NCBI GenBank assembly: GCA_963768165.1
Contig: CAVYHJ010000002.1
Coordinates: 195,283 to 259,282, forward strand
DNA: 64,000 nucleotides
Direction: 5' to 3'
Source of the DNA: an uncultured bacterium
GTDB lineage: Bacteria > UBP4 > UBA4092
The notes beneath the pieces were generated by a model, which was not told the DNA's origin, did no database searches, and saw only the letters and a program-made list of their open reading frames with translations. Shown here in pieces: positions 2,986 through 55,997 of the stretch (within the stretch, counting starts at the first letter, position 1; every line of letters begins with the position of its first letter). The position numbers and the translations under genes are program-made.

Positions 2986-3042
2986 ATATTTGCTCCGTTC
3001 CAATCTTTTCAATCTCCGCGACATGTTATAATTTTTAACATT

Positions 3043-4068
3043 ATGTCATCTGCCCTAATTTCCGTTCATCAATTAACCAAAACTTTTAAAACTTTTCACC
3101 GTAAGGAAGGCGTTGGTGGTGCGGTTTACAATTTATTCAAGCGGGATTATCGTCAAGTCCTGGCGGTTGACCATATCTCGTTTGAAATTCAAGACGGGGA
3201 ATTCATTGGATACATCGGCCCCAATGGCGCGGGAAAATCCACCACGATCAAAATGTTAACTGGTATCCTCGCGCCAACGTCCGGCGATATTCGAGTCGCG
3301 GGATTTATCCCTTGGAAACAGCGTCGGAAATATGTCACGCAAATCGGTGTGGTGTTTGGTCAGCGGACTCAGCTCTGGTGGGATATCGCCGTCATTGAAT
3401 CCTTTAAACTATTGCAAAAGATTTACGAGATTCCGTTGGACGTTTTCAAAAAACAACTGGACACCTACACTGAGATTCTTGAACTAAAAGAATTCCTCCA
3501 CACGCCTGTCCGTAAACTCAGTTTGGGTCAAAGAATGCGCTGTGATTTAACCGCTTCCCTACTACACCAGCCAAAAATTCTTTTTCTCGATGAGCCGTCG
3601 ATTGGATTGGACGTGGTCGCCAAATCTCGCATCCGTGATTTCTTAAAATATCTTAACCAGCAATTCAAAACCACAATCCTTTTGACCACCCATGACTTGG
3701 ATGAGATTGAGAAACTCTGTCCGCGTATTGTTCTCATAGACCACGGAAAAAAAGTCTATGACGGATTGCTTGATACTCTTTTGGATTCCTGTGTCCTGAC
3801 TCAAAAAATTACCGTTGACCTGGAAGACTCCTCGAAATTGGATTTCCTGCAATCGAAAAAAGGGAACGGGATTATGGATTATGCACGGATTAATCCCTAT
3901 CAAGGAACCATCACGATTGACCGCAAAAAAATGAGCGCGGGGGAAGCGGTTGCATTAGTCTTAACCAAGACGACCGTAAAAGATTTAAAGATCGAAGAAC
4001 CCTCAATCGAAGATGTCATCCGGGATATCTATGAAGGGAAACAAATTCTTCCATCGAGTAACCTATGA
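3043..4068 (+). CDS. ABC transporter ATP-binding protein (ABC-2 type system)
   Basis: Walker A GPNGAGKST, signature LSLGQRMR, Walker B LFLDEPSIGLD; ATGA overlap with next gene. Confidence 0.9.
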   Translation: MSSALISVHQLTKTFKTFHRKEGVGGAVYNLFKRDYRQVLAVDHISFEIQDGEFIGYIGPNGAGKSTTIKMLTGILAPTSGDIRVAGFIPWKQRRKYVTQIGVVFGQRTQLWWDIAVIESFKLLQKIYEIPLDVFKKQLDTYTEILELKEFLHTPVRKLSLGQRMRCDLTASLLHQPKILFLDEPSIGLDVVAKSRIRDFLKYLNQQFKTTILLTTHDLDEIEKLCPRIVLIDHGKKVYDGLLDTLLDSCVLTQKITVDLEDSSKLDFLQSKKGNGIMDYARINPYQGTITIDRKKMSAGEAVALVLTKTTVKDLKIEEPSIEDVIRDIYEGKQILPSSNL

Positions 4069-4880
4069 GTACCTCTTTCACCAAGATTCAGAAATATACC
4101 GAATACCTGCGTATATCCTTTCTCACTATGCTGGCGTATCGCGCGCGTTACTTTATCGGAATCACGACTTACATTATCTATATCGCCGTCAATTACTTCA
4201 TCTGGAAAGCCATGTTCAATTCCTCCGCATCTACCATCGGCGGATACACCTTCCCGCAAATGATTACCTACATTAACGTGGGTTGGATTTCCCGGAGTTT
4301 CTACTTTAATCGGCTCGATACGGAAATCGCGCAAAAAGTAGTCAAAGGGGATTTGGCGCTGGATTTGCTGAAGCCCGTGGACTTTCAAATGATGCAGTAT
4401 GCCCGAACGTTTGGAGAGGCGGTTTTCCGGTTATTCCTATTCACCCTGCCGACCTTCGTGGTGGCAATCTTCTTTTTTCCCATCCAGTTACCCGCTCATT
4501 CGACAACCTATGTTCTCTTCGTAATCAGCACACTCTTTGCCTTCTTACTTTTTACTTCCATCAATTACATTGTCGGTTTATTTTCCATCCCCTTGCAGAA
4601 CATTGAAGGGTTGTCCTATGCCAAGTCTAATTTGATGTTATTCTTTACCGGCTTGGTGATTCCCTTCAATCTCTTTCCGCCGATCATTACTCAAATTCTT
4701 AATTGTCTTCCCTTCGGCGGAATCTCTTATATCCCCTTGCAAATTTATCTGGAAAAGTTGTCTTTCCTAGGAATTTTTAAAGCTTTTGCAAATCAAATTA
4801 TTTGGATTTTGGTTCTTCATGCCATGGGTCGGTTAATTTATACTCAGTTCACTCGCAAGATTATTATTCAAGGAGGCTAA
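4065..4880 (+). CDS. ABC-2 family transporter permease
   Basis: Polytopic hydrophobic 271-aa protein translationally coupled to the upstream ATPase. Confidence 0.7.
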   Translation: MSTSFTKIQKYTEYLRISFLTMLAYRARYFIGITTYIIYIAVNYFIWKAMFNSSASTIGGYTFPQMITYINVGWISRSFYFNRLDTEIAQKVVKGDLALDLLKPVDFQMMQYARTFGEAVFRLFLFTLPTFVVAIFFFPIQLPAHSTTYVLFVISTLFAFLLFTSINYIVGLFSIPLQNIEGLSYAKSNLMLFFTGLVIPFNLFPPIITQILNCLPFGGISYIPLQIYLEKLSFLGIFKAFANQIIWILVLHAMGRLIYTQFTRKIIIQGG

Positions 4881-5684
4881 ATGCTTAAAACGATTATCTT
4901 TCATCTCAAAATCGGGTTCGGCCAGCAGGTGCAATTCCTTAAAGCGAAAATGGCGTATCAGGAAGATTTCTGGATTGGGCTGGTCGCGAACACTCTCTTG
5001 CACGTGGTCAACTTAATATTTATTAACGTCATATTCGAACAGACCAAGTCTCTGGCAGGCTGGGGAAAATATGACGTGTTCTTTATCTACGGAATGTCCA
5101 TCATCCCTTACTCTCTTTTCCACGGACTCTTTTCCAATATCTATTATTTGGCGAATGATTATATTGTCGAAGGAAATCTGGACCGGATTCTCCTCCGTCC
5201 GGTCAATAGCCTTTATCAGATTTATACCCAGAAAGTAGAACTGGAAGATTTAAGCGATATTTTTCTCGGTATTGGTATCCTGATTTATTCTTCCTTGGCT
5301 CTGCATTTACATTGGGGGATTCTGGAATATTTCGGATTGATTTTCTTTGTGATTTGCGGAGTGGCGGTATTTGTCGGCGTATTCACGACTTTATCATGTC
5401 TCAGTTTCTGGTTTTCCGACCGCACCGGCTTGATTCCCCCGGTCTATAACATGATGCAATTCGGCAGGTATCCTGTGACTATTTATAATTCCGTTGTCAA
5501 ATTCATCCTATCTTGGATCATCCCCTTTGCCTTTATCGGATTCTACCCCTCGACCTGGTTTATCCGCCGAGCGGAGTTCTCGCATTTTCTTCTCATCACA
5601 CCCGTCGTTGCCTTCGGTTGTATGTTCGTCGGCTACCTTACCTGGCATTTCGGATTACGACGATATGAGAGTACGGGAAGTTAA
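4881..5684 (+). CDS. ABC-2 family transporter permease (second subunit)
   Basis: Polytopic 267-aa protein starting 1 nt after the previous stop; same operon. Confidence 0.7.
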   Translation: MLKTIIFHLKIGFGQQVQFLKAKMAYQEDFWIGLVANTLLHVVNLIFINVIFEQTKSLAGWGKYDVFFIYGMSIIPYSLFHGLFSNIYYLANDYIVEGNLDRILLRPVNSLYQIYTQKVELEDLSDIFLGIGILIYSSLALHLHWGILEYFGLIFFVICGVAVFVGVFTTLSCLSFWFSDRTGLIPPVYNMMQFGRYPVTIYNSVVKFILSWIIPFAFIGFYPSTWFIRRAEFSHFLLITPVVAFGCMFVGYLTWHFGLRRYESTGS

Positions 5685-5763
5685 AAATTATCTTGATCAA
5701 TGCCAATCAGTGTTATCCGTGTCATCAGTGTACATTCTTTAACTTGGAACACCCAGCATCTAT

Positions 5764-6828
5764 CTACAATTTTATCACCAACTTGCCAAAGACCTGTCTC
5801 GATTCCATAATCGTCTCGGCTTTACTCACGTCTTTTAACGGATGCACGGAATGAATCGCGGGTTTCAATTTCCCCAGCGCCACCAATTCGGTCACGTGCA
5901 ATAATTCATTGCGCGTCCCCAGCATGGAACCCATGATATTTAATTGCCGCGAAAAGATGTAGCGTAAATCCACTTTCACTTCCGGTCCGGTGGTTGACCC
6001 GCAAAAGACCAATCGGCCATTCTTGCATAACGATTTCAAACTCTTGTCAAAAGTCGCGGGACCCACATGTTCAAACACCACATCCACGCCCCGCCCGCCG
6101 GTCAATTCCTTCACCTTTTCGTAAAAATCATGCGTCGGGAATGAAGTGTTCTCTACGGATTTCCCGACGCCGTAATCAATCGCTTCATCCGCGCCCAGTT
6201 TTTTACACTGTGCCAATTTCTCCTCACTACTGGACAGGGCTATCACTCTGGCACCGAACAATTTGGCAATTTGTATCGCTGCTGTTCCAATACCACTGCT
6301 CGCTCCCAAAATCAATACCGTCTCCGCTGGACGTAATTTCGCCCGTCCTATCAACATGTGCCACGCCGTTAAATACGCCAATGGAAACGCTGCCGCGTCT
6401 TCGAATGAAATCGTCTTGGGTTTGGGTATCACATGCTTCGCCGGGACAGCGGCGTATTCCGCAAACGCCCCTTGCGTATGCCCGCCGAATAATTTAAATT
6501 GAACGCAGGTGCTTTCCTCTCCCATCCGGCAATATTCACATTCAAAACACGGTTGTCCGGGAGAGATAATCACCTCGTCCCCGATTTTCCACTGCGTTAC
6601 CCGCGCCCCGACTTTCTCGATAATCCCCGCCCCCTCACACCCGCCGATATGCGGCATCGGCGCGTGATACGCCGGGATTCCCTTCCGAATCCACACATCC
6701 ACATGATTAATCGAAGTCGCCTTCACCCGCACCAACACTTCATCTTCTTTCATCTCTGGTTGGGGAAATTGCTCTTCATACGTTAACTTCTCAACCCCAC
6801 CCGGCTCATAAAAAACTACAGCTTTCAT
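5764..6828 (-). CDS. Zinc-dependent alcohol dehydrogenase family (MDR) oxidoreductase
   Basis: Catalytic Zn motif GGCEGAGII, structural Zn Cys cluster CFECEYC, NAD-binding ILGASSGIGTAAIQIAK. Confidence 0.85.
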   Translation of the reverse strand: MKAVVFYEPGGVEKLTYEEQFPQPEMKEDEVLVRVKATSINHVDVWIRKGIPAYHAPMPHIGGCEGAGIIEKVGARVTQWKIGDEVIISPGQPCFECEYCRMGEESTCVQFKLFGGHTQGAFAEYAAVPAKHVIPKPKTISFEDAAAFPLAYLTAWHMLIGRAKLRPAETVLILGASSGIGTAAIQIAKLFGARVIALSSSEEKLAQCKKLGADEAIDYGVGKSVENTSFPTHDFYEKVKELTGGRGVDVVFEHVGPATFDKSLKSLCKNGRLVFCGSTTGPEVKVDLRYIFSRQLNIMGSMLGTRNELLHVTELVALGKLKPAIHSVHPLKDVSKAETIMESRQVFGKLVIKL

Positions 6829-6862
6829 CGTATGTTCTCCTTCTCATTTGATTATACATTGA

Positions 6863-7258
6863 ATGTCTTGCTCATTTAAACTGGGTTTGGTATATTCTCA
6901 GGTTATGAAAGTGGCTTCAGGAAAAAAGAAAAGGATACTCAATTTAATAGTGTATGTATTTACTAATAAAATTACAACACGTATACTCAGTATAGGATTC
7001 TTTGCTTTATATGTTGGCTTTTCTATGACAAATCAGCGTACTGCTGCATTCCGTCTGATCGGAGTATATTTTATTTGCGGTGCGCTATATAATCTTCGTC
7101 ATCCGTGTGTCCCTTATGGAATTAGAGGACAACCACCAGCAGGATATTTAAGAGGGATTTATGCGGTTATCTTTGATATTGTGATTTTTATTATTGGTTT
7201 ATATTTTATTGTTTCACCAGAGTTGGCTAAGGAAATTTACGCTTATATGCATTCTTGA
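6863..7258 (+). CDS. Hypothetical small membrane protein
   Basis: 131-aa ORF with hydrophobic segments; no recognisable motif. Confidence 0.3.
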   Translation: MSCSFKLGLVYSQVMKVASGKKKRILNLIVYVFTNKITTRILSIGFFALYVGFSMTNQRTAAFRLIGVYFICGALYNLRHPCVPYGIRGQPPAGYLRGIYAVIFDIVIFIIGLYFIVSPELAKEIYAYMHS

Positions 7259-7512
7259 TATTTAGATAGAGCAATGCATCCTTCACCGCATCCTTGTCAT
7301 TCTGAGCGCAGCGAAGAATCCCTGTGTTCTACTCCCATATTATAGATTCAATGCGTCGGGAATTTTAGTGTTCTTTACGGTATTCCTGATGCATCTTTTA
7401 AAAAGGTTAAATTGTGATTGACATGATTAATTTCGTATGATAACCTTACGTTTCGTGTGGTAGGCGAAAATTTGATTTTTCCACATATTAACTCTAAAGG
7501 GAGGTAGTCGTT

Positions 7513-8016
7513 ATGAAGAAAATAATTCTATTCAGTTCGCTATTCGTATTTTTCATGATTGGATGGACTTGGACAAAAGTTGCGTGGACTAATTCTTTGG
7601 GTCCATTCGAAGACGTATATACACTGATTCCAATGAGCGGGTACACTACACTTCAGATCCAGTATGAATATTCAACAACAAGGTTTCAATTAAAATTGCC
7701 ATCCAAACCTGATTTGATTATGGAAAAGATTGAGAAAATAAAATTGTCAGTGAGTAAAAGTCCACATCCCTACCATATCATTATTGAGTTCAGTTCTGAT
7801 TATACTACTCAATTTGCTAAGCTTACTAGAAAAAACATAGGAAAATATATGGCAGTAATTGCGGATAACAAAGTGCTGGCTTGTAGAGTAATTACAAATA
7901 CCACTTCGAATACTTACATATTTATCAATTGGAGCGGTACTAACGAAGAGAATTCCCAATTCATAAAGTGGCTTAAAGGCAAGCCTCTGGAATTTTATTT
8001 TATTGTAATACCGTAA
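7513..8016 (+). CDS. Hypothetical secreted protein
   Basis: N-terminal signal-peptide-like segment MKKIILFSSLFVFFMIGWTWT; GGGAGG RBS upstream. Confidence 0.35.
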   Translation: MKKIILFSSLFVFFMIGWTWTKVAWTNSLGPFEDVYTLIPMSGYTTLQIQYEYSTTRFQLKLPSKPDLIMEKIEKIKLSVSKSPHPYHIIIEFSSDYTTQFAKLTRKNIGKYMAVIADNKVLACRVITNTTSNTYIFINWSGTNEENSQFIKWLKGKPLEFYFIVIP

Positions 8017-8662: not shown

Positions 8663-10996
8663 CTACGGCTTTTTATCCTTATGCTCGATCTTCTTGAAAT
8701 CATCAAGGGTTTCAGTCTTTTTGTTGAGGTCGTTTTTTAACCGCTGTAACGCCACTCTCATGACATCTCCATGAGAAATCCGCTTACCGTCCATGCGGGA
8801 CTGTACGTCAAGCCATAGGCTGTGTACCATATTAATATCTTCCTCACTCAATTGAGGAGCATGGGCACCCAAATTAAAGACATATTCAAACCCGTCCATA
8901 TCCACGACTTTAAACTGGACTTGTCGACGGGGTTTTTGCGGGAGCCGTTCCCAAGCTTGGCCAATGAGCTTTTCCTGTTCCCGGGCGTTCATTTTGGCAG
9001 ATAGACCGGTCACGATTTCAGCGGAATCCAGCCGCACCGCCGTTTGCGCCAGCGCATCGAATATATTATTGGAAGGAACCACCAGCAGGTCTACATGTTT
9101 CCCGTGTTTTTCAGCCATATTGACCACCGCGGTAAATAGGCGTTGTTCGTAATCCCGGAATAAGTTTTCCTGGTACAGGTCTCGTTCCCCGCTATCCGGT
9201 CCGGTAAGTAAGCGTATGGTGGTAACTACCACATCCTGTGCCACAGTATCGGTTTCATCCAACATATGTTCCAAGTGAGCGAGGAGATTGTAATTATGTA
9301 CCGCCACTAAAATATTGCCCGGTCGGGTTTGTACGGATTCCAGGCTGACTTCATGTTCTTGCGAAAGATTAAATTGTTCCAGGGAAGATACGGATTTATC
9401 CACTCTTTTGTGATTAATGTATTCCGAAACCGCAAATACGGTATAAAAAATACAGGTAAAGGCAATCCCTGAAATCGTGGCGATTTCTTTGGTAAATATA
9501 TTCACGACAGCGATGAAAAGTAAAACAGACGTAATCAGGATAAGTCCAAACGGGATTTCCAAAGTACCAATATATAAATTCCCCGGGACTTTCCATTCCC
9601 GCGGTGATTTGTCCTTATAGCGCAATACCACCATCGCCAGCCCTTTGAAGGCAAAAGACCATACCACACCAAAGGCGTAGGCTTCACCGAGCATATAGAC
9701 GTCTCCATGAGAACCCACGATGGTTAATAGTTGCATAAAGACAATCAAATTGATCATCCGGTAAGTGGTGCCGTATTTTTTCTGCGGTTTTCTAAACCAG
9801 GACGTCAGCACACCGTCTTCACTCAGCCGGTTGAGTACGCCGTTCGACCCGACAATGGCGGTATTCACCGCGCCGGAAAGCATTAAAAATCCCACAAAGA
9901 CTACAAAGGCTTGGAATAATAAGCGTAACGACAGTGGGCCAATCATATACATCGAAAGACCCGATATTAAATTGTCAAAGTATTGCGGTCGTACCGAGTC
10001 CGGGATAATCATAGAAGCAAAAATGCTGACCAGGGAAGTGAATATCAGGGAATAAACAAAGATGACAAAGCCGGCGCGCATAAGGTTTTTATGTTTGGGA
10101 TATTCCAGTTCCCTGTTCACCTGCGCCAGGGATTCTTCTCCGCTCATGGCTAAAACCGCATGGCCAAATGCGATCATGATTCCCAGTACCCCCATCCACA
10201 TGCCGAGTCCCCCGCGCATTCCAAACCGGGTTTCAGGGGGCGGTGCACTTGGATCCGCGGGGACAGCGTTGGGAGTATGAGTTAATGGATAAAATGCTTT
10301 AGGGAATATTTTCGGCATCCATCCGATAGCATCTTTGCTATATTCCATATGGCTGGCGGTCGGGGGAGGGGGCATTTGAGTTATCCCTTTTTGGATAAGA
10401 GTCAGGCTGCACCAGAATATCATAATGACCACCATCACGGTAGTAATTTTCATTATTTGTAAAGCATCCGAGGACGATTCATGCATCCCCTGGATATTCC
10501 GCCACCAGAAATACAGGGTTATAAATATGGCGATTCCAGCGGAAATCAAGTTAATGACCGATTTATCGGGCTGCCAGGGATGGCCAAAATAGGTCATAGT
10601 TTGCGCCACCAGTCCTACAATATACTGTCCTGCCGACACACCTGAAATGGGTCCCGTGAGTACATAGTCAAACATCAGGGCAGACACACTGATTTTAGCG
10701 AGCGTCCCGCCCATGGCTTCTTTGACCACGCGGTACACCCCACCCCGGGTAAACATGGCACAGCTTTCAACATAGACTGCCCGCACGGCGTAACTGAATA
10801 ACATGACCCCCAAAACCAGCCAGGGAGCCGCCCGGCCTGCCGCTTCTTCCGCAATCCCACCGACATAAAATGCCGATGAGCCCAGGTCGTTTAAGACAAT
10901 AGCCGCCGCGCGCCAAAAGGAGATAAAGGACAACATCACGGTCGTCGCGATAACTACCCGGACTCGATTTTGTTGAGGTGTAGTAGTAGGTTCCAT
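8663..10996 (-). CDS. APC-superfamily transporter with about 300-aa C-terminal cytoplasmic (USP-like) domain; possible K+ or amino-acid importer
   Basis: About 12 predicted TM segments in the N-terminal 480 aa plus a soluble C-terminal domain; immediately preceded by riboswitch-like leader A. Confidence 0.7.
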   Translation of the reverse strand: MEPTTTPQQNRVRVVIATTVMLSFISFWRAAAIVLNDLGSSAFYVGGIAEEAAGRAAPWLVLGVMLFSYAVRAVYVESCAMFTRGGVYRVVKEAMGGTLAKISVSALMFDYVLTGPISGVSAGQYIVGLVAQTMTYFGHPWQPDKSVINLISAGIAIFITLYFWWRNIQGMHESSSDALQIMKITTVMVVIMIFWCSLTLIQKGITQMPPPPTASHMEYSKDAIGWMPKIFPKAFYPLTHTPNAVPADPSAPPPETRFGMRGGLGMWMGVLGIMIAFGHAVLAMSGEESLAQVNRELEYPKHKNLMRAGFVIFVYSLIFTSLVSIFASMIIPDSVRPQYFDNLISGLSMYMIGPLSLRLLFQAFVVFVGFLMLSGAVNTAIVGSNGVLNRLSEDGVLTSWFRKPQKKYGTTYRMINLIVFMQLLTIVGSHGDVYMLGEAYAFGVVWSFAFKGLAMVVLRYKDKSPREWKVPGNLYIGTLEIPFGLILITSVLLFIAVVNIFTKEIATISGIAFTCIFYTVFAVSEYINHKRVDKSVSSLEQFNLSQEHEVSLESVQTRPGNILVAVHNYNLLAHLEHMLDETDTVAQDVVVTTIRLLTGPDSGERDLYQENLFRDYEQRLFTAVVNMAEKHGKHVDLLVVPSNNIFDALAQTAVRLDSAEIVTGLSAKMNAREQEKLIGQAWERLPQKPRRQVQFKVVDMDGFEYVFNLGAHAPQLSEEDINMVHSLWLDVQSRMDGKRISHGDVMRVALQRLKNDLNKKTETLDDFKKIEHKDKKP

Positions 10997-11016: not shown

Positions 11017-11237
11017 ATAAAAAACGCTCGAAAGGCACGTTCCCTTCGAGCGGTTATTGCCACCACTAAAAGCGCTATGTTAGAAACGTCCACTGTCTCT
11101 CCCACGCCTGCGGGGTTAGCTGTTGGGTTCGGGTTGAAAAGTAACCCTGCGCGTTTCCGCGATTCACCCCCTGACATCGGTTCCCCCGTCTCTTGCGAGC
11201 TCGGCGATCTTTCGTGGGATTCTTATTCCAAATTTAA
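11017..11237 (-). promoter_or_regulatory. Candidate c-di-AMP (ydaO/kimA-type) riboswitch leader, copy A, with intrinsic terminator
   Basis: Conserved core shared with three other copies (RNA sense ...GGGGGAACC...GGGGUGAAUC-CGCG-GAAA-CGCG-CAGGGUUACUUUUCAACCCGAACCC..CAGCUAACC..GCAGGCGUGGG); 3' hairpin CGCUCGAAGG/CUUUCGAGCG plus U-run at 11017-11055; extended -10 TGATATAAT at 11245-11253; start codon 10996 about 20 nt past the U-run. Confidence 0.6.
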
Positions 11238-11270: not shown

Positions 11271-11591
11271 ATGATGCATATAGACTTTACATATTTGTTC
11301 CGAATAGCCTGCATATCCACTGCGTTATGCTTCTTGTGTTATGAATATTATTATTTTAAGTGTTACTTTTATTTAAGAAAGCATTTTCTGGACTTTCGTT
11401 TACGATGGAATCGTCTGTATTTTGCATACTTAAATATGAAAAATTATCGGGATTATATGTTGGAAAAAGGAGTAACAGAGGAAACGACAACGTTAAAAAA
11501 GTATATTACAATACTTAGAATAAGTATTCTTTTAGGTGTGATTAGTTTGATTTTCGTGGTAGTATTTGGTCATTTAAGTCACCTAATTTAG
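11271..11591 (+). CDS. Small membrane protein, tandem paralog 1
   Basis: 106 aa, N-terminus MMHIDFTYLFRIA, TTETTTLK motif, two TM segments; paralog of the next gene. Confidence 0.4.
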   Translation: MMHIDFTYLFRIACISTALCFLCYEYYYFKCYFYLRKHFLDFRLRWNRLYFAYLNMKNYRDYMLEKGVTEETTTLKKYITILRISILLGVISLIFVVVFGHLSHLI

Positions 11592-11622
11592 CCAGACTCG
11601 TTTTGCTTTGGATGGTATTTGA

Positions 11623-11934
11623 ATGATGCATACTGTCTATACATATCTCTTCCGAATAGCCAGTGTATCCTTTGTGTGGTACTTATTACGTTATTTATAT
11701 GATGGTGTAGTGTTTACCTTTTATTTAAAGGAGCATTTTCATGACTTTGAAAAAAGATGGTTTAGTGGAAGTCGTGCTTACTTCAATACGAAAAGTTTTA
11801 GAGATTATATGTTTGAGTTTGACATTACCACAGAAACTACGACTTTAAAATGGCATCTTAAAAAAGTTAGAATAAGTTTTCTTTCATGTGTTGTTAGTTA
11901 TATTTTAGCGGTAGTATTTTATATTTTAAGATAG
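11623..11934 (+). CDS. Small membrane protein, tandem paralog 2
   Basis: 103 aa, MMHTVYTYLFRIA...TTETTTLK; same architecture as 11271..11591. Confidence 0.4.
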   Translation: MMHTVYTYLFRIASVSFVWYLLRYLYDGVVFTFYLKEHFHDFEKRWFSGSRAYFNTKSFRDYMFEFDITTETTTLKWHLKKVRISFLSCVVSYILAVVFYILR

Positions 11935-11986
11935 CTATATTAACCAGACCCGTTTTGCTTTGGTAATGAAGTCTTGTCGTATAATA

Positions 11987-12080
11987 GGGCTAAAGCCCTG
12001 AGAACCGTGCACTAAAGTGCCGTAGAAGAAACAATCCTTCTACCCTGCTTTAGCAGAGGGTTACTGGACTTTAGTCCAAA
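11987..12080. repeat. Interspersed double-hairpin palindromic repeat (family R1), copy 1
   Basis: Halves GGGCTAAAGCCC..GCACTAAAGTGCCGTAGAAGAA and CTTCTACCC..GCTTTAGC..GGACTTTAGTCC; same family at 14083-14186 and 25597-25686. Confidence 0.6.
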
Positions 12081-12183
12081 CCAACCCCATCCCCTCTTTT
12101 CCCCCTCCCGCCAGCGCCGGATAAACAGGTAATTTAAATAGGTGTATAATAACCCTCACTGAAATATTGAGGTATAGATAGAG

Positions 12184-12663
12184 ATGAAAAAAACAGTTTC
12201 AATAATTTTGAATATACTTTCTTTGCTATCAATGTTTTTCAGTATTTTATGGACTTTTGTAATGTCATTGTTGTTATTCCGATGTTTACTTTATCCTGTA
12301 AAGTTTTCTGTGCAAAAAGATTCCCTAACTAATGGAATTTTTTATCGTTTTGTAGCTGCATATCCTATCTCTTTTTGCTTGATTGGAATTATTGCATTTC
12401 TCGGCCAGTTAGTCGTGTCTTTTGGGGTTTTAAAAAGGTTTAAATGGGGACTGTATGGGGTAAGAATTATTCTATTTCTTTTTCTCATAGCTGATATAAT
12501 CTATGATTATAGCAATCTAACCTATATTGATATTAACATTGGATTGATTGTATTCTTGTTAATTTTCTTTTATCTCCCCATCGTCAAAAGCCTGTTTGAA
12601 AAGCAACCCCCGATTCCCAGCGAACCCACCCCCTCTTTCCCCCCTCCCGCCAGTGCCGGATAA
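12184..12663 (+). CDS. Polytopic membrane protein with Pro-rich C-terminal tail, tandem paralog 1
   Basis: 159 aa; C-terminus FLPIVKSLFEKQPPIPSEPTPSFPPPASAG nearly identical to next gene; 5' region (CCCTCCCGCCAG..TAATAACCCTCACTGAA..ATAGATAGAGATG) also duplicated. Confidence 0.45.
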   Translation: MKKTVSIILNILSLLSMFFSILWTFVMSLLLFRCLLYPVKFSVQKDSLTNGIFYRFVAAYPISFCLIGIIAFLGQLVVSFGVLKRFKWGLYGVRIILFLFLIADIIYDYSNLTYIDINIGLIVFLLIFFYLPIVKSLFEKQPPIPSEPTPSFPPPASAG

Positions 12664-12722
12664 ACAGGTTGTTTAAATAGATGTATAATAACCCTCACTG
12701 AACTATAGAGGAATAGATAGAG

Positions 12723-13268
12723 ATGAAAAAAGCTATAACCATAATAATGTACCTTCTCGCTGTCCTTTGTATCTTGTTCAGTGTGATAGGTCTTTATCAA
12801 GGAATATCCTTTTTATCTGTATTATTCTTTCTCCCAGATTCAGTTTGGTATGAAATAAAAAGCGTGGGGATTCACTCGTCCTCATCAGTCATACACACGC
12901 AGAGTGTCTTACAATGTTTTCTAGATATTATTTTTGGTATCATTCAGTTTTTTGGATTTATAGGGGTATTACAGAAAAAGAAATGGGGATTGTATTGTGT
13001 TCAGGTAGTCTTGATTACTAGTTTTATTGACTTGATTCTGACAATGATAGATTATTACTCGGTAATTCAACCGATGATGAAACAACAAGGGGGCAATGTT
13101 CATTTGTTGATAGGCGGAAATCAATGGAAATTTATAAGGGGATTTGTCTTGGAAATCATCCTCTTGGTTTTCTTTTTCCTCCCCATCGTCAAAAGCCTGT
13201 TTGAAAAGCAACCCCCGATTTCCAGCGAACCCGTCCCCTCTTTCCCCCCTCCCGCCAGCGTCGGATAA
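12723..13268 (+). CDS. Polytopic membrane protein with Pro-rich C-terminal tail, tandem paralog 2
   Basis: 181 aa; same conserved C-terminal tail and duplicated 5' region. Confidence 0.45.
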   Translation: MKKAITIIMYLLAVLCILFSVIGLYQGISFLSVLFFLPDSVWYEIKSVGIHSSSSVIHTQSVLQCFLDIIFGIIQFFGFIGVLQKKKWGLYCVQVVLITSFIDLILTMIDYYSVIQPMMKQQGGNVHLLIGGNQWKFIRGFVLEIILLVFFFLPIVKSLFEKQPPISSEPVPSFPPPASVG

Positions 13269-13303
13269 GCGAACTAATAGCGAATATGCACCGAACCAGA
13301 AGC

Positions 13304-13346
13304 GGAGCTGGTGTGGAGGTGAAAATTTCACCTCCACACCAGCTCC
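13304..13346. other. Perfect 19-bp-stem palindrome
   Basis: GGAGCTGGTGTGGAGGTGAAAATTTCACCTCCACACCAGCTCC between convergent genes. Confidence 0.6.
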
Positions 13347-13414
13347 ACTCCATATTCGGTTCAAAAAGAGTTTTGAAACATAGACCCGACCACCTTCTGC
13401 GTCCATATCCTCCC

Positions 13415-13442
13415 GTAGAGACGTAACATGTTACGTCTCTAC
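13415..13442. other. Perfect 28-nt palindrome
   Basis: GTAGAGACGTAACATGTTACGTCTCTAC; no adjacent T-run. Confidence 0.6.
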
Positions 13443-13460
13443 AGAGGAATAGGGGTGGTC

Positions 13461-13937
13461 TTAATGGGTTAGCAGATAATTGGAAACAAACAAGTTATGC
13501 CCGGAATCTTGCAATCCTTTGGCTTTTTCATCCCAAATTGCCTTTTGTGCGGGAGACAGAGACTGCCAAGCTGATTGGGCAGGGCTCATTTTCCCTCTTT
13601 GTGCCTGTTGGAGAGGGGTGCGGGGGTTCGCCCCTTCTTCGTAATCCCGGGCATACTGTGTCCCGGTTTTCCCGACGACTTGATAGGTTAATCCCTTGAA
13701 TTTCCCATGCGCCTGCAAAGAATCCAACGGGAATTGTTCGACAATGAGAACCACATCCCCGCCCAGAACCGATTGGGGAATGGAACCCAATATCCTTTTA
13801 ACTTTGGCAGGTTTCACCGTAATCCCTTCCGGTTGAAACGCAGATTGCAACGCTTTCAGTAATATTTTTTCGACCTCTTTCCCACGAAACACCTGAATCA
13901 CCTTGTTTTTAGGTTTGCGATATATATTCGTTGGCAT
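13461..13937 (-). CDS. Hypothetical protein
   Basis: 158-aa ORF with GGAGG-like RBS; no recognisable motif. Confidence 0.35.
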   Translation of the reverse strand: MPTNIYRKPKNKVIQVFRGKEVEKILLKALQSAFQPEGITVKPAKVKRILGSIPQSVLGGDVVLIVEQFPLDSLQAHGKFKGLTYQVVGKTGTQYARDYEEGANPRTPLQQAQRGKMSPAQSAWQSLSPAQKAIWDEKAKGLQDSGHNLFVSNYLLTH

Positions 13938-14050: not shown

Positions 14051-14082
14051 CTATCGGATGTAGAATTCATTATGAAGTAAAT

Positions 14083-14186
14083 CTTCTACCCGGCTTTAGC
14101 CGAGGGTTTCTGGACTTTAGTCCAAACATTTCAGAAGAGAATGGGCTAAAGCCCAAAGAACCGTACACTAAAGTGTCGTAGAAGAA
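14083..14186. repeat. Interspersed double-hairpin palindromic repeat (family R1), copy 2
   Basis: CTTCTACCCGGCTTTAGCCGAGGG..GGACTTTAGTCC...GGGCTAAAGCCC..ACACTAAAGTGTCGTAGAAGAA. Confidence 0.6.
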
Positions 14187-14195
14187 TAGATTTAT

Positions 14196-14894
14196 TTATT
14201 CTTTGGCTCCGGCATCTTTCAGGAGTTTTACGATGTCGTCATATTTCTTATATGTCGCTATTGATAAGGCAGTTTTACCATCATTGGTTTTCGTATTGAT
14301 ATTGGCTCCTTTATCTAGCAAGGCTTTCATGGTATCCATACGACCACCACGAACCGCCCACATCAAAGCAGTATAACCAATAACATCTTTCGCATTGACC
14401 TCCGCGCCTTTCGCTAATAAGGCTTGTACGGTCTCGTTATGTCCTACAACTGCCGCATTCATCAAGGCGGTCATACCGTACTTGTTTTTCGCATTGACCT
14501 CCGCACCTTTCGCTAATAAAGCGTTCACGATATTCGTTTGGCCCCACCATGCCGCTGACATCAAGGCGGTGTTACCAAACTTATTTTTTACATTAACATC
14601 GGCTCCTTTCGCCAATAAAGCTTGCACGGTATCTGTATGACCATTTTCTTCTGCTAACATCAAAGCGGACACACCTGTACTATCTTTCACATTCGGGTTC
14701 ATCCCCGCATCCAAATATAATTTTATAACATCGGTTTTGCTATGTCCTGCACATTTAAAAAACTCATCTTCGCTATAGGTAATCTTCATTTGCGCCAGTT
14801 CATTACGCGCTTCTTGCGGGGTTTTGGCGAAGGAAGGGAATACCAGGAACAAAAATAGTACAAGAGAGAGACACGGTAATGGTTTCAATTTCAT
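14196..14894 (-). CDS. Secreted ankyrin-repeat protein
   Basis: Signal peptide then repeated TALM.AA..GH...V..LL.KGA.VNAK units; AAGGAG RBS. Confidence 0.8.
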   Translation of the reverse strand: MKLKPLPCLSLVLFLFLVFPSFAKTPQEARNELAQMKITYSEDEFFKCAGHSKTDVIKLYLDAGMNPNVKDSTGVSALMLAEENGHTDTVQALLAKGADVNVKNKFGNTALMSAAWWGQTNIVNALLAKGAEVNAKNKYGMTALMNAAVVGHNETVQALLAKGAEVNAKDVIGYTALMWAVRGGRMDTMKALLDKGANINTKTNDGKTALSIATYKKYDDIVKLLKDAGAKE

Positions 14895-14976
14895 TATAAT
14901 TGGTACTCCTTTTTCCTCTAGAATGTATGGCGTCGGGAAAAAGAAGAGCGTTTATTCCCGACGCAGTTTTATTCTG

Positions 14977-15783
14977 TTATTCTTTCGCCCCGGCACTCTT
15001 GAGGAGTTTTACGACGTCGGGATGGTTCTCTTTTGCCGCGTCCATCAAAGCAGTATGACCTTCATTATCTTTCGCATTGACTTGAGCACCTTTTTTTAAT
15101 AAGACTTTAACGGTCTCTGCATGACCTGTGACTGCCGCAAACATCAAGGCAGTCCTGCCATTATTGATTTTCGCATTGACTTCAGCACCTTCTTTTAATA
15201 AGACTTGCACAGTCTCCGTATGACCATTCACTGCCGCTAATATCAATGCGGTCACACCACCCTTGTTTTTTGCATTGACATCCGCCCCTTTTGCTAATAA
15301 GGTTTGAACGATCTTCGTATAACCAAACTCTGCCGCAAGCATCAAGGCGTTTTTACCTTGTTTAGTTATCGCATCAACTTTTGCCCCTTTTGCTAAAAGG
15401 GCTTGCAACGTATCTGTACGACCACTAAGTGCCGCCCATGTCAATGGGGTCCAGTCATCGTTTGATTTCGCATTAATATCAGCACCTTTCGCCAATAAGG
15501 CTTGTAGAGTCTCAATATTATTATGAAATGCCGCAGCCATCAAGGGGGTTCGACCATTATCGTCTTTCAAATTCGGATTCATCCCAGCATCTAAAAACAA
15601 TCTCACAGCGTCAGTTTTGCCGTGTTGTGCACAAAAGAGAAATTCATCTTCGCTATAGGTTATTTTCATTTGCGCCAGTTCATTGCGCGCTTCTTGCGGG
15701 GTTTTGGCGAAGGAGGGGAATACCAGAAACGAAAATAGTAAAAGAGAGAGGCTTAATAATGGATTGAATTTCATCATACTTGG
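14977..15783 (-). CDS. Secreted ankyrin-repeat protein (paralog)
   Basis: Start placed at internal MMKFNPLLSL (AAGGAG RBS) rather than the ORF-track start; same N-terminal FLVFPSFAKTPQEARNELAQMKITYSEDEF as neighbour; at least six ankyrin units. Confidence 0.8.
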   Translation of the reverse strand, partial: PSMMKFNPLLSLSLLLFSFLVFPSFAKTPQEARNELAQMKITYSEDEFLFCAQHGKTDAVRLFLDAGMNPNLKDDNGRTPLMAAAFHNNIETLQALLAKGADINAKSNDDWTPLTWAALSGRTDTLQALLAKGAKVDAITKQGKNALMLAAEFGYTKIVQTLLAKGADVNAKNKGGVTALILAAVNGHTETVQVLLKEGAEVNAKINNGRTALMFAAVTGHAETVKVLLKKGAQVNAKDNEGHTALMDAAKENHPDVVKLLKSAGAKE

Positions 15784-16064
15784 TACTCCTTTTTCCCAAA
15801 GAATGAGAGAGTTTTTTATTACCGATAGCATACTCCCTTCTAGAACCCAGAGTCAAGTTAAAGAGTGGAAGGAACGGGAGAAACGGAGAATGGGCGAGAG
15901 AGCGAAATAGAATCAGGAATGAAGGAAAAGGTCAAATATGTTACCTGCTCCAGCAAAGAGATACCCATTATTTTGCCTATAAATAGACAGGTAGAAAAGA
16001 GTTGAAAAGATAACAGATTGTGCTATAATTTTTCTTAGTCAAAAACGGTCGGGAGGACACTTCG

Positions 16065-25596: not shown

Positions 25597-25686
25597 TTAA
25601 TAACTTCTACCCGACTTTAGTCGAGGGTTCGGGGACTTCAGTCCCAATTTAAGGGCTAAAGCCCTAAGAACCGTGGACTAAAGTCC
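25597..25686. repeat. Interspersed double-hairpin palindromic repeat (family R1), copy 3
   Basis: CTTCTACCCGACTTTAGTCGAGGG..GGACTTCAGTCC..GGGCTAAAGCCC..GGACTAAAGTCCCGTAGAAGAA between kdpC and kdpB. Confidence 0.6.
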
Positions 25687-25702
25687 CGTAGAAGAAAATA
25701 TG

Positions 25703-29737: not shown

Positions 29738-29896
29738 TAAATAAAAAACCCACTCACTCTTCCACGCCTACGAGGTTAGCTGACGGGCTCGGGTTGAAAA
29801 GTAACCCTACGCTTTCGCGATTAGCCCCAACTTCCGGTTCCCCCGTATCTTTCGAATTCGGCGAACTTAAGTGGTAATACTGCTATATTTTTCTAC
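29738..29896 (-). promoter_or_regulatory. Candidate c-di-AMP (ydaO/kimA-type) riboswitch leader, copy B
   Basis: Same conserved core as copies A, C, D; internal GNRA-capped hairpin CGC-GAAA-GCG; 3' tail GAGUGAGUGGGUUUUUUAU. Confidence 0.6.
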
Positions 29897-35427: not shown

Positions 35428-35590
35428 TCAATAAAAAACCCACTCACTCTTCCACGCCTGCGAGGTTAGCTGACGGGCTCGGGTTGAAAAGTAACCCTAC
35501 ACCTTGCGGTGATTCGCCCCAACTTTCGGTTCCCCCGCCTTTTTCAAGCTCGGCGAACTTAAGTGGTACTATTAAAATTCTATGTTATTT
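35428..35590 (-). promoter_or_regulatory. Candidate c-di-AMP (ydaO/kimA-type) riboswitch leader, copy C
   Basis: Conserved core; internal hairpin CACC-GCAA-GGUG covaries with GCGC-GCAA-GCGC (D), CGC-GAAA-GCG (B) and CGCG-GAAA-CGCG (A). Confidence 0.6.
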
Positions 35591-38097: not shown

Positions 38098-38261
38098 TAA
38101 ATAAAAAACCCACTCACTCTTCCACGCCTGCGAGGTTAGCTGACGGGCTCGGGTTGAAAAGTAACCCGGCGCTTGCGCGCTTCGCCCCTACTTCTTGGTT
38201 CCCCCGCCTCTTACGAGCTCGGCGAACTTAAGTGGTGCTAAGTTCTTGATTTAATTTTCTA
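38098..38261 (-). promoter_or_regulatory. Candidate c-di-AMP (ydaO/kimA-type) riboswitch leader, copy D
   Basis: Conserved core with GCGC-GCAA-GCGC hairpin; 3' tail GAGUGAGUGGGUUUUUUAU; M23 peptidase gene downstream. Confidence 0.6.
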
Positions 38262-45337: not shown

Positions 45338-45712
45338 ATGAAAACATTAAGAAATAAACGTGGTTTTACCTTGGTGGAAATTATGATCGTAGTAGCGATC
45401 ATCGGAATCTTGGCGGCTATTGCTATCCCGAACTTTATCAGAGCGCGGATACAATCTAATGCCAAGGCGTGCGTCAATAACCTGAAACAAGTATCGGGTG
45501 CCAAAGACCAATATGCCTTGGAATTCAAATTGACAGGTTCGAATTCCGTGAGTCCGTTTGCCAATCTGACGGTGTATCTGTTGAACCCGAATGCGACAAC
45601 CTGCCCGACTAATGGGTCCGCCTATACCGGCGATGTGGTTATTCAAAATACTGTGGTCTGTCCGAACTTTGCTTCAACCGATCCAGAATTTTCACTACAT
45701 CATTTCCCTTAA
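45338..45712 (+). CDS. Prepilin-type (pilin/pseudopilin-like) protein 1
   Basis: N-terminal GFTLVEIMIVVAIIGILAAIAIP cleavage/methylation motif; 124 aa. Confidence 0.8.
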   Translation: MKTLRNKRGFTLVEIMIVVAIIGILAAIAIPNFIRARIQSNAKACVNNLKQVSGAKDQYALEFKLTGSNSVSPFANLTVYLLNPNATTCPTNGSAYTGDVVIQNTVVCPNFASTDPEFSLHHFP

Positions 45713-45797
45713 AAACGTATTTACTCAAAACCGGCGTCTTGGTTTAACTTACAAGCCGTCGGTTTTTTTACTGTTTCGGGAAAAAAAGGAGAAAAAT

Positions 45798-46172
45798 ATG
45801 TTTAAAAAAAGAGGTCAATTAGGATTTACCTTGGTAGAAATCATGATTGTCGTGGCTATTATCGGAATCTTGGCGGCTATCGCTATTCCGAACTTTATCA
45901 GGGCCCGAATTCAATCTAATGCCAAGTCTTGCGTCAATAATCTTAAGCAAGTAACCGGTGCGAAAGCGCAATACGCCTTGGAATTCAAACTGACAGGTTC
46001 CAATTCCGTTAGCCCGTTTGCCAACCTGACCGTGTATCTGTTGAATCCGAATGCGACAGCCTGCCCCACCAATGGATCCGCCTATACTGGCGATGTGGTT
46101 ATTCAAAATGCTGTTGTCTGTCCGAACTTTGGTTCAACCGATCCGGAATTTTCACTACATTACTATCCGTAA
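45798..46172 (+). CDS. Prepilin-type protein 2
   Basis: Start set at MFKKRGQLGFTLVEIM (AAGGAG RBS); about 85 percent identical to gene 1. Confidence 0.8.
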   Translation: MFKKRGQLGFTLVEIMIVVAIIGILAAIAIPNFIRARIQSNAKSCVNNLKQVTGAKAQYALEFKLTGSNSVSPFANLTVYLLNPNATACPTNGSAYTGDVVIQNAVVCPNFGSTDPEFSLHYYP

Positions 46173-46281
46173 TTCAAGAAGAGGGCGATTGTGTATAATA
46201 AGAAGTTATCATACCAAGGAGTTCTTGGAAGCCGAGAACTCCTTGGGTAATCAGTTTAGTGTGAAAACCAGTGATAGTGAT

Positions 46282-46662
46282 ATGAAACCTAGAACAAAAA
46301 AGTTAAAACGTGGATTTACCCTTGTTGAAATCATGATTGTGGTTGCAATCATCGGAATTTTGGCCAGCATTGCTATTCCATGGTGGATACGCAGTGTAAT
46401 TCAAACCAATGCGAAAGCTTGCATCAACAACCTTAAACAATTGGATAGTGCCAAATTCCAATATGCATTGGAATTAAAAATGTCTGGTTCCGCATCTATT
46501 ACATCAATTTCGGATCTAACAGTCTACCTGTTACAGCCCAATGCGACAACCTGCCCTACTAATGGCAGCCCCTATTTGGGAAGTTTTGTGGTAAGCAATG
46601 ATTTTGTATGTCCTAATTTTACCTCGATTGATCCCGAATTCTCAATGCATACCTGGCCTTAA
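46282..46662 (+). CDS. Prepilin-type protein 3
   Basis: Start set at MKPRTKKLKRGFTLVEIM; more divergent paralog. Confidence 0.75.
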   Translation: MKPRTKKLKRGFTLVEIMIVVAIIGILASIAIPWWIRSVIQTNAKACINNLKQLDSAKFQYALELKMSGSASITSISDLTVYLLQPNATTCPTNGSPYLGSFVVSNDFVCPNFTSIDPEFSMHTWP

Positions 46663-48951: not shown

Positions 48952-50637
48952 TTAATATTTCTTCCAGTCAGCTATATCTACAGTCGATGGTGTCAGTATC
49001 AAATGGGTAATGGATAAGGGAGGAAGATTGTAAGTGAAAGAATTCCCGGTTACTGAAATGACGGATGGTCCAATAATGGAGGCTCCACTGTTTGAGGCTA
49101 CCGAATAGATGGTCGCACTATTGAACGTGGTTTGACTGCTAATTGTAAAATTTCCATTAATGGTCTGGGTCATATTTTTATTGAGGACCATGATATGCAA
49201 TTGTGATTGATTACTGGACATCACAGAGGCATAGATGGAGGTATCGGTAGTATCGTTCATCAACGCCTGCACATGGGTATCGCCAAAGGTGGAATTATGT
49301 CCGTCATAATTCCGGTACATCTTATAGGCTAGTGAATTATATTCATCCCCATTCCCTAAAGACCACAAACAACCCGCAAAGACACCATATTTCCCGAATA
49401 TTCCCAATACATCTGCTTCCGCTATTCCCCCTGTGATATCCCATCCTCCACCATAGTTATATTCTGAGATCGAAAGTTGGGTTCCGGGATTATAGATATT
49501 GATACAAGATTGAATCGCTGGAATATAAGGACAAAATGGTGCCCAGTAAGTTGTTTGACCTTGTCCTATCCAACTGGGTTGAATATAATTGCTATCCCAT
49601 AATTCACGGGGAGCTTGTAACCGGGCTAATTTATCTGCATTCGTGTCATTACCGGAATTGGTACTATTTATCCGATGAGTACCTGTGACCTCTGAATAGT
49701 CATGAATATCGAGCACATCCAGTAATCTAAATCCGTAAGCTGTAGAAGCCTGATACAGTTTATCCAAATAATAGCTAAGAAACCAGCCATAACTTCCTTG
49801 AACAGTGCTCCAATCGGGTGCATTTTGCAAAGTCAGAAAACCTTCAAAACCATAGTCTACCGGGCCGAACATCAGAGCCGTTGAATCCACCGACTTGATG
49901 GCGGAAGAACAGGCAATTGTCTTTTGGACTAATTCCGTGCATTGGGTTGCCGTGGGATGAATTTCCTTATGTGTGGAGGGCCATAGACTGGGTTCATTAT
50001 CCAAGTCGTAGAAGGGAACTCCACCAGTTACCTGGCTTAATGTACTGAAAGAGCTTAGGCTGCCAGCACCCGTCCCAAACCTGTTCACCAGATAGTTGAC
50101 CTGTTCATCCATATACACGGTAGAACCATTATCATACTTTGTCTCTTTCGGGTTCGTAGTAAAGGCGGAACCTTTATGAAATGCTATGGGATTAAATCTC
50201 GATGAAGAGAATGATGCCGTACTGACAACACCTGTATCATCTGCTGAAACATAACCGGCCATCTGGATTGTTAATAGGTTCTGTGCCGTGAATTTCGATC
50301 GGGTATCTAAGACATACACCGTATTCGTAGTACACGGAGACACCGTACCAATGGAAACGGAAACCCCGCCTGGTAGCATATAATCATCGCTTTCGAATAT
50401 ATAATCATTTCCTGCATTGGACCAATTCGTGACCCAGTTATATGCCGTCAAACGGTTTCCACCCATTCGAAACAAAGTAAAATTCTCCCCCCCTACCAAA
50501 TCCTGATTGGTTCCGTAAATATAGGGGCTGATTGGTTGCTGGTCGGTTTGGGGTGAAATCGTGTAGTTGACGTTTATTTGTGCGAAGGCGGAAATGGTTA
50601 GGTTGAGTAAGACGAGAAACACGAGCTTTTTTTGCAT
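48952..50637 (-). CDS. Secreted glycoside hydrolase, GH44-like (short paralog)
   Basis: Signal peptide; FRMGGNRLTAYNW, DLDNEPSLW and SEYNYGGGWDITGG motifs resemble GH44 from memory; 561 aa. Confidence 0.55.
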   Translation of the reverse strand: MQKKLVFLVLLNLTISAFAQINVNYTISPQTDQQPISPYIYGTNQDLVGGENFTLFRMGGNRLTAYNWVTNWSNAGNDYIFESDDYMLPGGVSVSIGTVSPCTTNTVYVLDTRSKFTAQNLLTIQMAGYVSADDTGVVSTASFSSSRFNPIAFHKGSAFTTNPKETKYDNGSTVYMDEQVNYLVNRFGTGAGSLSSFSTLSQVTGGVPFYDLDNEPSLWPSTHKEIHPTATQCTELVQKTIACSSAIKSVDSTALMFGPVDYGFEGFLTLQNAPDWSTVQGSYGWFLSYYLDKLYQASTAYGFRLLDVLDIHDYSEVTGTHRINSTNSGNDTNADKLARLQAPRELWDSNYIQPSWIGQGQTTYWAPFCPYIPAIQSCINIYNPGTQLSISEYNYGGGWDITGGIAEADVLGIFGKYGVFAGCLWSLGNGDEYNSLAYKMYRNYDGHNSTFGDTHVQALMNDTTDTSIYASVMSSNQSQLHIMVLNKNMTQTINGNFTISSQTTFNSATIYSVASNSGASIIGPSVISVTGNSFTYNLPPLSITHLILTPSTVDIADWKKY

Positions 50638-50860
50638 GATTACATACTCCTAATAAATTAAATAGTTCAATATGTCTACATTAGATAATAGGATAATAAA
50701 AATATATTTGCAATATGATAAATCTTTTCCAATATAAGACGTGGCGGAAATAGTGGAAGAGTGGGCAAGAGAATTAATAAAAAAGAGGATATTCTGAAAT
50801 GAACAACCCTATGTACTTATTATAAATTTCTAGTAAAATTTCCCTTGATTATTACCCCGA

Positions 50861-53287: not shown

Positions 53288-53394
53288 CGGAAGGACTATC
53301 CTTTCAAATAAATAATTTATGATACGTTAAATTTACCTCAATCGGTGAGGTCATGTCAATGGATCTTAACCAATAAAAACGCGATAGAAATAGT

Positions 53395-53437
53395 GGAAGA
53401 ATAAATAAAAAAAGGAGTGTTCTGACATGAACACCCC
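53395..53437 (-). terminator. Intrinsic terminator after GH44-like gene copy 3
   Basis: Hairpin GGAGTGTTC-TGACAT-GAACACCCC followed by U-run on the minus-strand transcript. Confidence 0.5.
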
Positions 53438-53478
53438 TATATACTCATTATTATAAAATTCTAGTAGAATGTCTCTAG

Positions 53479-55908: not shown

Positions 55909-55997
55909 CGGAAGGACTATCCTTTCAAATAAAAATATATATGATACATTAACTATATTTACCACAATCGGTGAGGCTATGTCAATGTATAATAATC

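Follow-up and report, generated by a model that had tools for sequence, protein, structure and literature searches.

In a 64,000-nucleotide (nt) stretch of DNA from an uncultured bacterium (GTDB lineage Bacteria; UBP4; UBA4092; assembly GCA_963768165.1, contig CAVYHJ010000002.1, forward-strand positions 195,283 to 259,282), hereafter the window, four small genes lie in a row on the plus strand. Two copies of a gene that we call A are followed by two copies of a gene that we call B (Table 1). An earlier note had described them as two tandem pairs of small paralogous membrane proteins that resemble variable surface or immunity-protein cassettes. The four open reading frames (ORFs) it listed agree exactly with the ORF list of the window, and the proposed paralogy within each pair is firmly supported. 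A1 and A2 share 49 of 99 residues (49%) in a gapless BLASTP alignment (E=2e-26). Both motifs which the note had singled out, MMHxxxTYLFRIA and TxETTTLK, are common to the two proteins, the second reading TEETTTLK in A1 and TTETTTLK in A2. B1 and B2 are 39% identical (BLASTP, E=8e-27). The A and B families show no relationship to each other.

In the DNA, the A unit recurs every 352 nt at 70–77% identity. The B repeats are direct, not inverted, and here too the earlier description was accurate: a near-identical proline-rich tail and a duplicated 5' region enclose divergent cores. Among the last 30 residues of B1 and B2, 26 are identical. The tail DNA is 90% identical over 110 nt. Identity is 81% across the 158 nt that run from the tail end through the spacer into the 5' coding end, and the DNA of the core is far more diverged than any of these parts.

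Table 1. Features of the A–B locus (positions in the window; aa, amino acids; TM, transmembrane helices; REP, repetitive extragenic palindrome; BIME, bacterial interspersed mosaic element; L083, L084 and L086, contigs with relatives)
Feature	Position	Strand	Remarks
A1 gene	11271..11591	+	106 aa; ORF, paralogue of A2
A2 gene	11623..11934	+	103 aa; ORF, paralogue of A1
B1 gene	12184..12663	+	159 aa; 4 predicted TM, Pro-rich C-terminal tail, 'alpha' core, nearest the L084 and L086 proteins
B2 gene	12723..13268	+	181 aa; 4 predicted TM, Pro-rich tail, 'beta' core, nearest the L083 protein P0008
B0 remnant	12086..12124	+	remnant of a destroyed third B copy; last 12 codons (PIPSFPPPASAG) and stop, then B–B type junction
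REP/BIME-like palindromic element	11987..12085		between the A pair and the B array, where the B0 body should be
20-nt post-A motif CCAGACTCGTTTTGCTTTGG	11592..11611	+	immediately 3' of the A1 stop
20-nt post-A motif, second copy	11944..11963	+	9 nt 3' of the A2 stop
Promoter-like TAAACA-17-TATAAT	12122..12150	+	5' of B1; 10 of 12 consensus positions (consensus match)
Promoter-like TAAACA-17-TATAAT	12661..12689	+	5' of B2, within the duplicated junction; 10 of 12 consensus positions (consensus match)
Hairpin	13287..13363		38-nt arms; directly 3' of the B array; no canonical U-tract

Relatives of these genes are few. When 1.84 billion representative proteins were searched exhaustively with a HMMER profile, only five B proteins were returned (E 6e-98 to 3.5e-14), namely B1, B2 and three relatives (P0008, P0009 and P0010), all three of which are encoded on contigs shorter than 1.1 kb. 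All public data that we searched hold five B proteins and three A copies in total. On contigs L084 and L085, a 5'-cut but intact A ORF (76.6% nucleotide identity to A1) is followed by the 20-nt motif, a spacer, the B gene for P0009 and the start of a downstream hairpin. Since A lies directly upstream of B in these contigs as well, the order A→B defines a conserved module, and what the note took for two 'pairs' is a single locus, which the earlier reader had missed. The note had proposed to look for similar cassettes in related genomes. The A→B adjacency recurs in a second organism, on L084 and L085; only three further B proteins were found, and the one on L083 has no A on its 1-kb contig.

A second point that had been missed concerns the B array. 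A 24-nt probe from the B tail has three matches in the window versus 0 expected, and the third (12091-12114) lies upstream of B1. It belongs to a tail remnant that is in frame (...NPIPSFPPPASAG-stop). The DNA 3' of its stop codon carries the same junction that separates B1 from B2 (TAAACAGGT..TTTAAATAG.TGTATAATAACCCTCACTGAA...GAGG...ATG). Because a B-to-B junction stands upstream of B1, a third copy (B0) was formerly present there. B thus once had at least three copies.

The array in its present form thus reads A1-A2-[REP-like insertion and B0 remnant]-B1-B2. The REP-like element consists of alternating inverted units of ~45 nt, each with two mini-hairpins (CTAAAG/CTTTAG loops) and ending in CTTCTAC or GTAGAAG. 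The mini-hairpin GGRCTAAAGYCC occurs seven times in the window (0.7 expected), and folding z-scores of the element range from -4 to -7. Further copies were found at 14080-14186 and 25604-25696 in the window and at 501-654 of contig L086, where a REP-like element is inserted in the B tail and provides a new stop codon. An Rfam search of the spacers gave only sub-threshold hairpin look-alikes, and the REP-like element itself had no Rfam match. In the window, the element has taken the place of the B0 body and abuts the B0 remnant.

Chance ORFs in AT-rich DNA were considered as an explanation of both families and rejected, since ORFs shuffled at equal composition remained free of stop codons in ≤0.03% of trials. 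Gene calls conflict for A1, which comprises 106 aa in one source but only the last 44 aa, starting from an internal Met, in another (L001 4140-4274). We favour the long form because A1, A2 and the L084 copy show full-length homology. In simulations of random substitution at the observed divergence, the A frame stayed open in only 0.1–0.5% of cases. ETTTLK is invariant across the three A copies, with synonymous differences in its Thr and Leu codons. For B, the ratio of non-synonymous to synonymous substitution rates (dN/dS) ranges from 0.19 to 0.61, with an excess of third-position changes. The open A frame, the synonymous changes in ETTTLK and the dN/dS of B together indicate that both families are coding. 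For A, dN/dS is 0.73–0.83 and changes are spread evenly over the codon positions; A is either only weakly constrained or diversifying.

The B cores fall into two subtypes. Both dN and the identities per segment place B1 with the L084 and L086 proteins and B2 with the L083 protein. The tail end and spacer tell a different story: over this part B1 and B2 are 89% identical to each other and 64–69% identical to the others, versus 37–51% for the cores, a comparison of five sequences only in which the discordant signal comes mainly from the 36-nt tail end. Old core subtypes combined with a homogeneous tail in B1 and B2 indicate that the B duplication is old and that the junction was probably homogenised within this genome, most simply, we suppose, through unequal crossing-over or gene conversion among adjacent copies. 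This resembles the concerted evolution of tandem families, in which ends are likewise more alike than cores, the core phylogeny is older and copies are gained and lost, except that the homogenised tract in B is small. By dN, A1 is nearer to its L084 counterpart (0.28) than it is to A2 (0.38), and thus the A duplication is probably old, too.

These results bear on the idea that A and B are recent or neutral duplicates, young and poorly constrained, which drift or decay without a specific function. We give this idea little probability. Every one of the three A copies and five B genes is intact at a nucleotide divergence of 24–30% (A) and >40% (B), both duplications are older than the split from the relatives, and the simulations rarely keep the A frame open. 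Furthermore, motifs are conserved through synonymous changes and dN/dS of B stays below ~0.6. What speaks for drift is the high dN/dS of A, whose changes are equally frequent at the three codon positions, its uniform base composition (GC1≈GC2≈GC3≈0.3, the GC content at first, second and third codon positions), one B copy already destroyed, the truncated B tail of L086 and the disagreement of gene callers on A1 (44 aa versus 106 aa).

The rate of change sets the module apart from its surroundings. For A, dN amounts to 0.28 and for B to 0.43, versus 0.06–0.12 for neighbouring genes compared with a close relative from the L084 sample series; dN/dS of these neighbouring genes is ~0.07–0.11. The relative that provided the neighbouring genes is probably the same organism as that of L084. 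Given this identity, non-synonymous change in A and B would be 3–8 times that of their neighbours. Base composition differs as well. The genes have 30–38% GC versus 42–48% in their neighbours; the locus forms a GC trough of 30–38% between flanks of 44–54%, and GC3 is 0.25–0.44 versus 0.40–0.57 in neighbouring genes, other membrane proteins included. As GC3 also lies below that of the other membrane proteins in the window, we rejected low GC as a mere side effect of membrane-protein composition. A gene for a 167-aa secreted protein resembling the SecDF-P1 head (7513-8016) is likewise low in GC (0.34; GC3 0.35).

The signals around the genes are conserved beyond the window. The post-A motif, CCAGAC(T/C)CGTTTTGCTTTGG, occurs twice in the window (0 expected) and a third time on L084 (nt 314-333) after the A gene, so that it follows all three A stops. 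It is conserved at 18–20 of 20 positions, which is above the conservation of the A coding sequence. Upstream of B, TATAAT and a downstream GAGG are kept in B1, B2, L084 and L086. The spacer between A and B on L084 contains TATAAT and lacks the REP-like element. At the other end of the array, the 5' arm of the long hairpin is kept 3' of B on L084, whose contig ends in the hairpin loop, and the B transcript probably ends at this hairpin. A second stable hairpin (13403-13454, 26-nt arms) has no canonical U-tract either. Both lie in the spacer between B2 and a convergent 158-aa ORF (13464-13937), and this spacer folds with z=-10.9.

That the proteins are small membrane proteins, as the note had it, agrees with hydropathy and AlphaFold2 predictions, which give four hydrophobic helices for B and a helical hairpin for A. 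In B, the N-terminus, loop 2 and the tail together carry 6–7 Lys/Arg residues, versus 2–4 in loops 1 and 3, which are net acidic. From this distribution, the N and C termini of B are predicted to be cytoplasmic, and the proline-rich tail would not be exposed at the surface. The topology prediction for which the note had called therefore yields a four-helix protein with both ends probably inside the cell. Mean pairwise identity among the B proteins is 87% for the N-terminus, 60% for loop 2 and 64% for the tail, as compared to 19% and 14% for the outer loops 1 and 3. The length of loop 3 ranges between 4 and 26 residues, and it has no conserved Cys. The conserved parts of B, an MKK N-terminus, a GVLKKxKWGL loop and the FFFLPIVKSLFEKQPPIP tail, would thus all face the cytoplasm, and the two hypervariable, length-variable loops are predicted to face outward. 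In A, the C-terminal TM helix is strong, the N-terminal helix is rich in aromatic residues and weakly hydrophobic, and the middle is helical, basic and conserved. AlphaFold2 models A1 as a helical hairpin with a predicted local distance difference test (pLDDT) score of 76. The conserved basic middle of A, too, is predicted to be cytoplasmic.

Taken together, we hold with high confidence that A→B is a real, lineage-restricted, fast-evolving membrane-protein module, which was expanded in tandem, underwent partial homogenisation at its junctions and was cut back by a REP-like insertion.

Its restricted distribution emerged from several searches. The hmmscan of A1, A2, B1 and B2 against Pfam-A and NCBIfam (E≤1) gave SCAMP only, for B1, with E=0.84 and 10 bits versus a cut-off of 27. 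In PHROGs, the only matches had E≥0.03 and belonged to families of unknown function. PADLOC gave no match at E≤1 for these four proteins or for P0008, P0009 and P0010, and a profile search of the PDB gave nothing significant (Tspan15 at E=0.16). Homology to a characterised housekeeping family, which the note had named as evidence against its proposal, was looked for by profile search and none was found. Word-indexed protein searches with B2 alone, an A profile and a five-member B profile returned known members only, a type of search that is insensitive for these biased sequences (the B2 query missed B1). Scans of JGI metagenomes with B and A profiles and of IMG/VR with the B profile gave no match. 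Using the neighbouring transporter as an anchor, we compared 80 syntenic loci from other phyla among the GTDB representatives, which do not include the source genome, and none of these loci contains A or B; the best matches are 64% identical and come from Blastocatellia and NC10. Two Logan contigs (L001 and L002) are 100% identical to the window and added no strain variation. Both are broken inside the B1 tail repeat, and the relatives are all on short contigs, which indicates that assemblers fail at these repeats.

A close relative (L087, ADH 90% identical at the protein level) can be compared with window positions 3022-7322. It contains ~1.9 kb of extra sequence between the ADH and ABC-2 genes, with an ArsC-like gene, an epimerase gene, a DUF4258 gene and a 101-aa ORF, and lacks the 131-aa ORF that the window has at 6863-7258.

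Immediately 5' of A1, on the minus strand, lies a cyclic di-AMP (c-di-AMP) riboswitch (11090-11216) which leads the gene of a KimA-like permease (8666-10996). The A1 start is 55 nt from this leader and is overlapped by the promoter-like site of the permease gene. This proximity raises the alternative that A and B serve an ordinary membrane machine as accessory or regulatory subunits specific to the lineage, for example as modulators of the adjacent c-di-AMP-controlled K+ uptake comparable to KdpF or further small membrane regulators, and that the duplicates are ordinary paralogues. K+ uptake genes are abundant in the region, many ordinary genes of this genome are duplicated in tandem, and the conserved parts of A and B are predicted to be cytoplasmic, as expected of a docking subunit. 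However, A and B are divergent from the transporter gene and not co-transcribed with it, and B has its own promoter-like site. The B gene on L083 lies between zinc-ribbon genes, the 80 syntenic transporter loci of other phyla are free of A and B, and a rate 3–8 times that of the neighbours, together with the atypical GC3, would be unusual for a fixed subunit. We regard the subunit explanation as unlikely.

The riboswitch 5' of A1 is accompanied by a terminator-like hairpin at 11052-11025. It is one of four c-di-AMP riboswitches (ydaO-type, RF00379; 92–101 bits) found on the minus strand within 27 kb, the others being located at 29750-29873, 35440-35565 and 38110-38234. Besides the KimA-like permease, they lead an M23 peptidase and two kdpABC operons, which are paralogous to each other and of which one includes a KdpD-like gene. 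Together these make up a dense c-di-AMP-controlled regulon of K+ uptake and cell-wall functions. Tandem arrays occur elsewhere in the window: three prepilin-type (N_methyl) genes at 45338-46662 with a period of 460–490 nt, three GH44 glycoside hydrolase genes at 48955-55965, which lie beside a DDE transposase gene, and two secreted ankyrin-repeat genes at 14196-15831.

The transposase gene (56018-57274) is the one nearest to the locus. Within ~10 kb, we found genes for a K+ transporter, PilZ, the SecDF-head-like protein, ankyrin, SBBP (beta-propeller) and the unknown 158-aa protein. Inspection of ORFs and Pfam domains over the same distance revealed no toxin, bacteriocin, secretion, phage or recombinase genes, and no prophage or plasmid context was found for the locus. 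The spacers of the locus contain only the REP-like element and the B tail remnant, with no toxin C-terminal fragment.

Holin/antiholin and other small phage or stress membrane-protein pairs are likewise encoded by neighbouring genes whose products are small and helical. A and B might be imagined as a selfish or toxin-antidote pair, in which A is a small protein that damages membranes, holin-like or type I-toxin-like, and is neutralised by the membrane protein B. The size of A (~100 aa), its strong C-terminal TM helix and its aromatic-rich, basic character would suit such a toxin; the A→B adjacency is conserved, and many addiction modules are likewise AT-rich, taxonomically restricted and fast-evolving. 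Nevertheless, we give this explanation little probability. There is no PHROGs holin match, no PADLOC match and no lysis or phage gene nearby, and the charged region of A lies between its hydrophobic helices and not at the C-terminus. In addition, B occurs on L083 without an adjacent A, two A copies are intact here, the REP insertion parts the A genes from the B genes, and a prophage or plasmid context is missing.

Other known systems resemble the locus in part. The membrane immunity proteins of class II bacteriocins and those encoded by orphan immunity-gene arrays of polymorphic toxin loci (cdiA-CT/cdiI of contact-dependent growth inhibition, CDI, and Rhs orphan modules) are small, fast-evolving, patchy in distribution and often embedded in the membrane. 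Their arrays consist of tandem divergent paralogues with conserved junctions that allow recombination, and contain displaced 3' remnants. A and B share small size, fast change, patchy occurrence, tandem paralogues, conserved junctions and a 3' remnant with these arrays. In contrast to them, A and B match no immunity profile (EntA_Immun, Abi/CAAX and Imm were among the types considered), the locus has no toxin or bacteriocin gene, toxin C-terminal fragment or export machinery nearby, and the remnant is the tail of B itself and not that of a toxin gene. Tetraspan families (tetraspanins, MS4A/CD20, MARVEL/synaptophysin and SCAMP) have four TM helices and cytoplasmic termini, as predicted for B, but B does not belong to them by sequence profile, and its loop 3, with 4–26 residues and no conserved Cys, does not correspond to the large second extracellular loop (EC2) with a CCG motif of tetraspanins. 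Silent-cassette gene conversion, shufflons and invertible segments differ from the B array in that each B copy has a start codon, GAGG and TATAAT, the repeats are direct and no recombinase gene is near. With a promoter-like site and a start codon of their own, the B copies are not silent cassettes.

The likeness to variable surface or immunity-protein cassettes in the earlier note therefore holds for the conserved ends around a divergent core and for the B variation in two loops predicted to lie outside. It does not extend to an immunity-family match, to toxin, secretion, phage or recombinase genes nearby, to a surface-exposed tail, which is predicted to be cytoplasmic, or to silent copies.

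As to the role of A and B, immunity or exclusion at the cell envelope fits the pattern of variation best, because the inner faces are conserved, the outer loops hypervariable, old paralogues kept, the composition atypical and the distribution patchy. We offer this role as a tentative possibility. In such a scheme, A and B would cooperate in the cytoplasmic membrane and form a non-essential, immunity- or exclusion-type module of the envelope. The outer loops would be the changeable face that B turns towards a varying agent from outside, for instance a phage or a toxin directed at membranes, and the conserved cytoplasmic surfaces, together with the proline-rich tail, would serve as a docking site for A or for a shared partner. 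Divergent paralogues might be kept to widen specificity. The most far-reaching version, an undescribed two-component envelope immunity/exclusion module with specificity in the outer B loops, in which recombination at the junctions duplicates, deletes and homogenises copies and REP-like elements that target the tail prune them, is improbable as a whole.

Several observations count against a functional module of this kind. The dN/dS of A and the even spread of its changes are equally expected of relaxed constraint, variable loops do not by themselves prove diversifying selection, and the same pattern of variation could come from relaxed loop constraint. The topology derives from hydropathy and the positive-inside rule only, and the fold matches are generic helical bundles from low-confidence models. 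On L083, the B gene has zinc-ribbon genes on either side, and the 1-kb contig shows no A in the ~400 nt upstream or 130 nt downstream. Nothing links the module to a function: Pfam, NCBIfam, PHROGs, PADLOC and PDB provided no match, the surrounding ~10 kb offered no partner of the types named above, and tandem paralogues are found for many ordinary genes of this genome (ankyrin, kdp operons, pilin-like, GH44).

None of the libraries that we searched contains the families, and nothing shows a new kind of mechanism: A and B are an orphan tandem gene family, and on present evidence mainly a well-documented one. They illustrate that ORFs can be real and linked as a conserved pair and yet evolve nearly at the neutral rate. 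They also serve as a warning that short-read assemblies break at exactly such repeats. If the proposed envelope role were true, A→B would represent a new and compact membrane module of an uncultured lineage that serves self-protection or varies the envelope, and whose array grows, shrinks and is homogenised at a defined junction.

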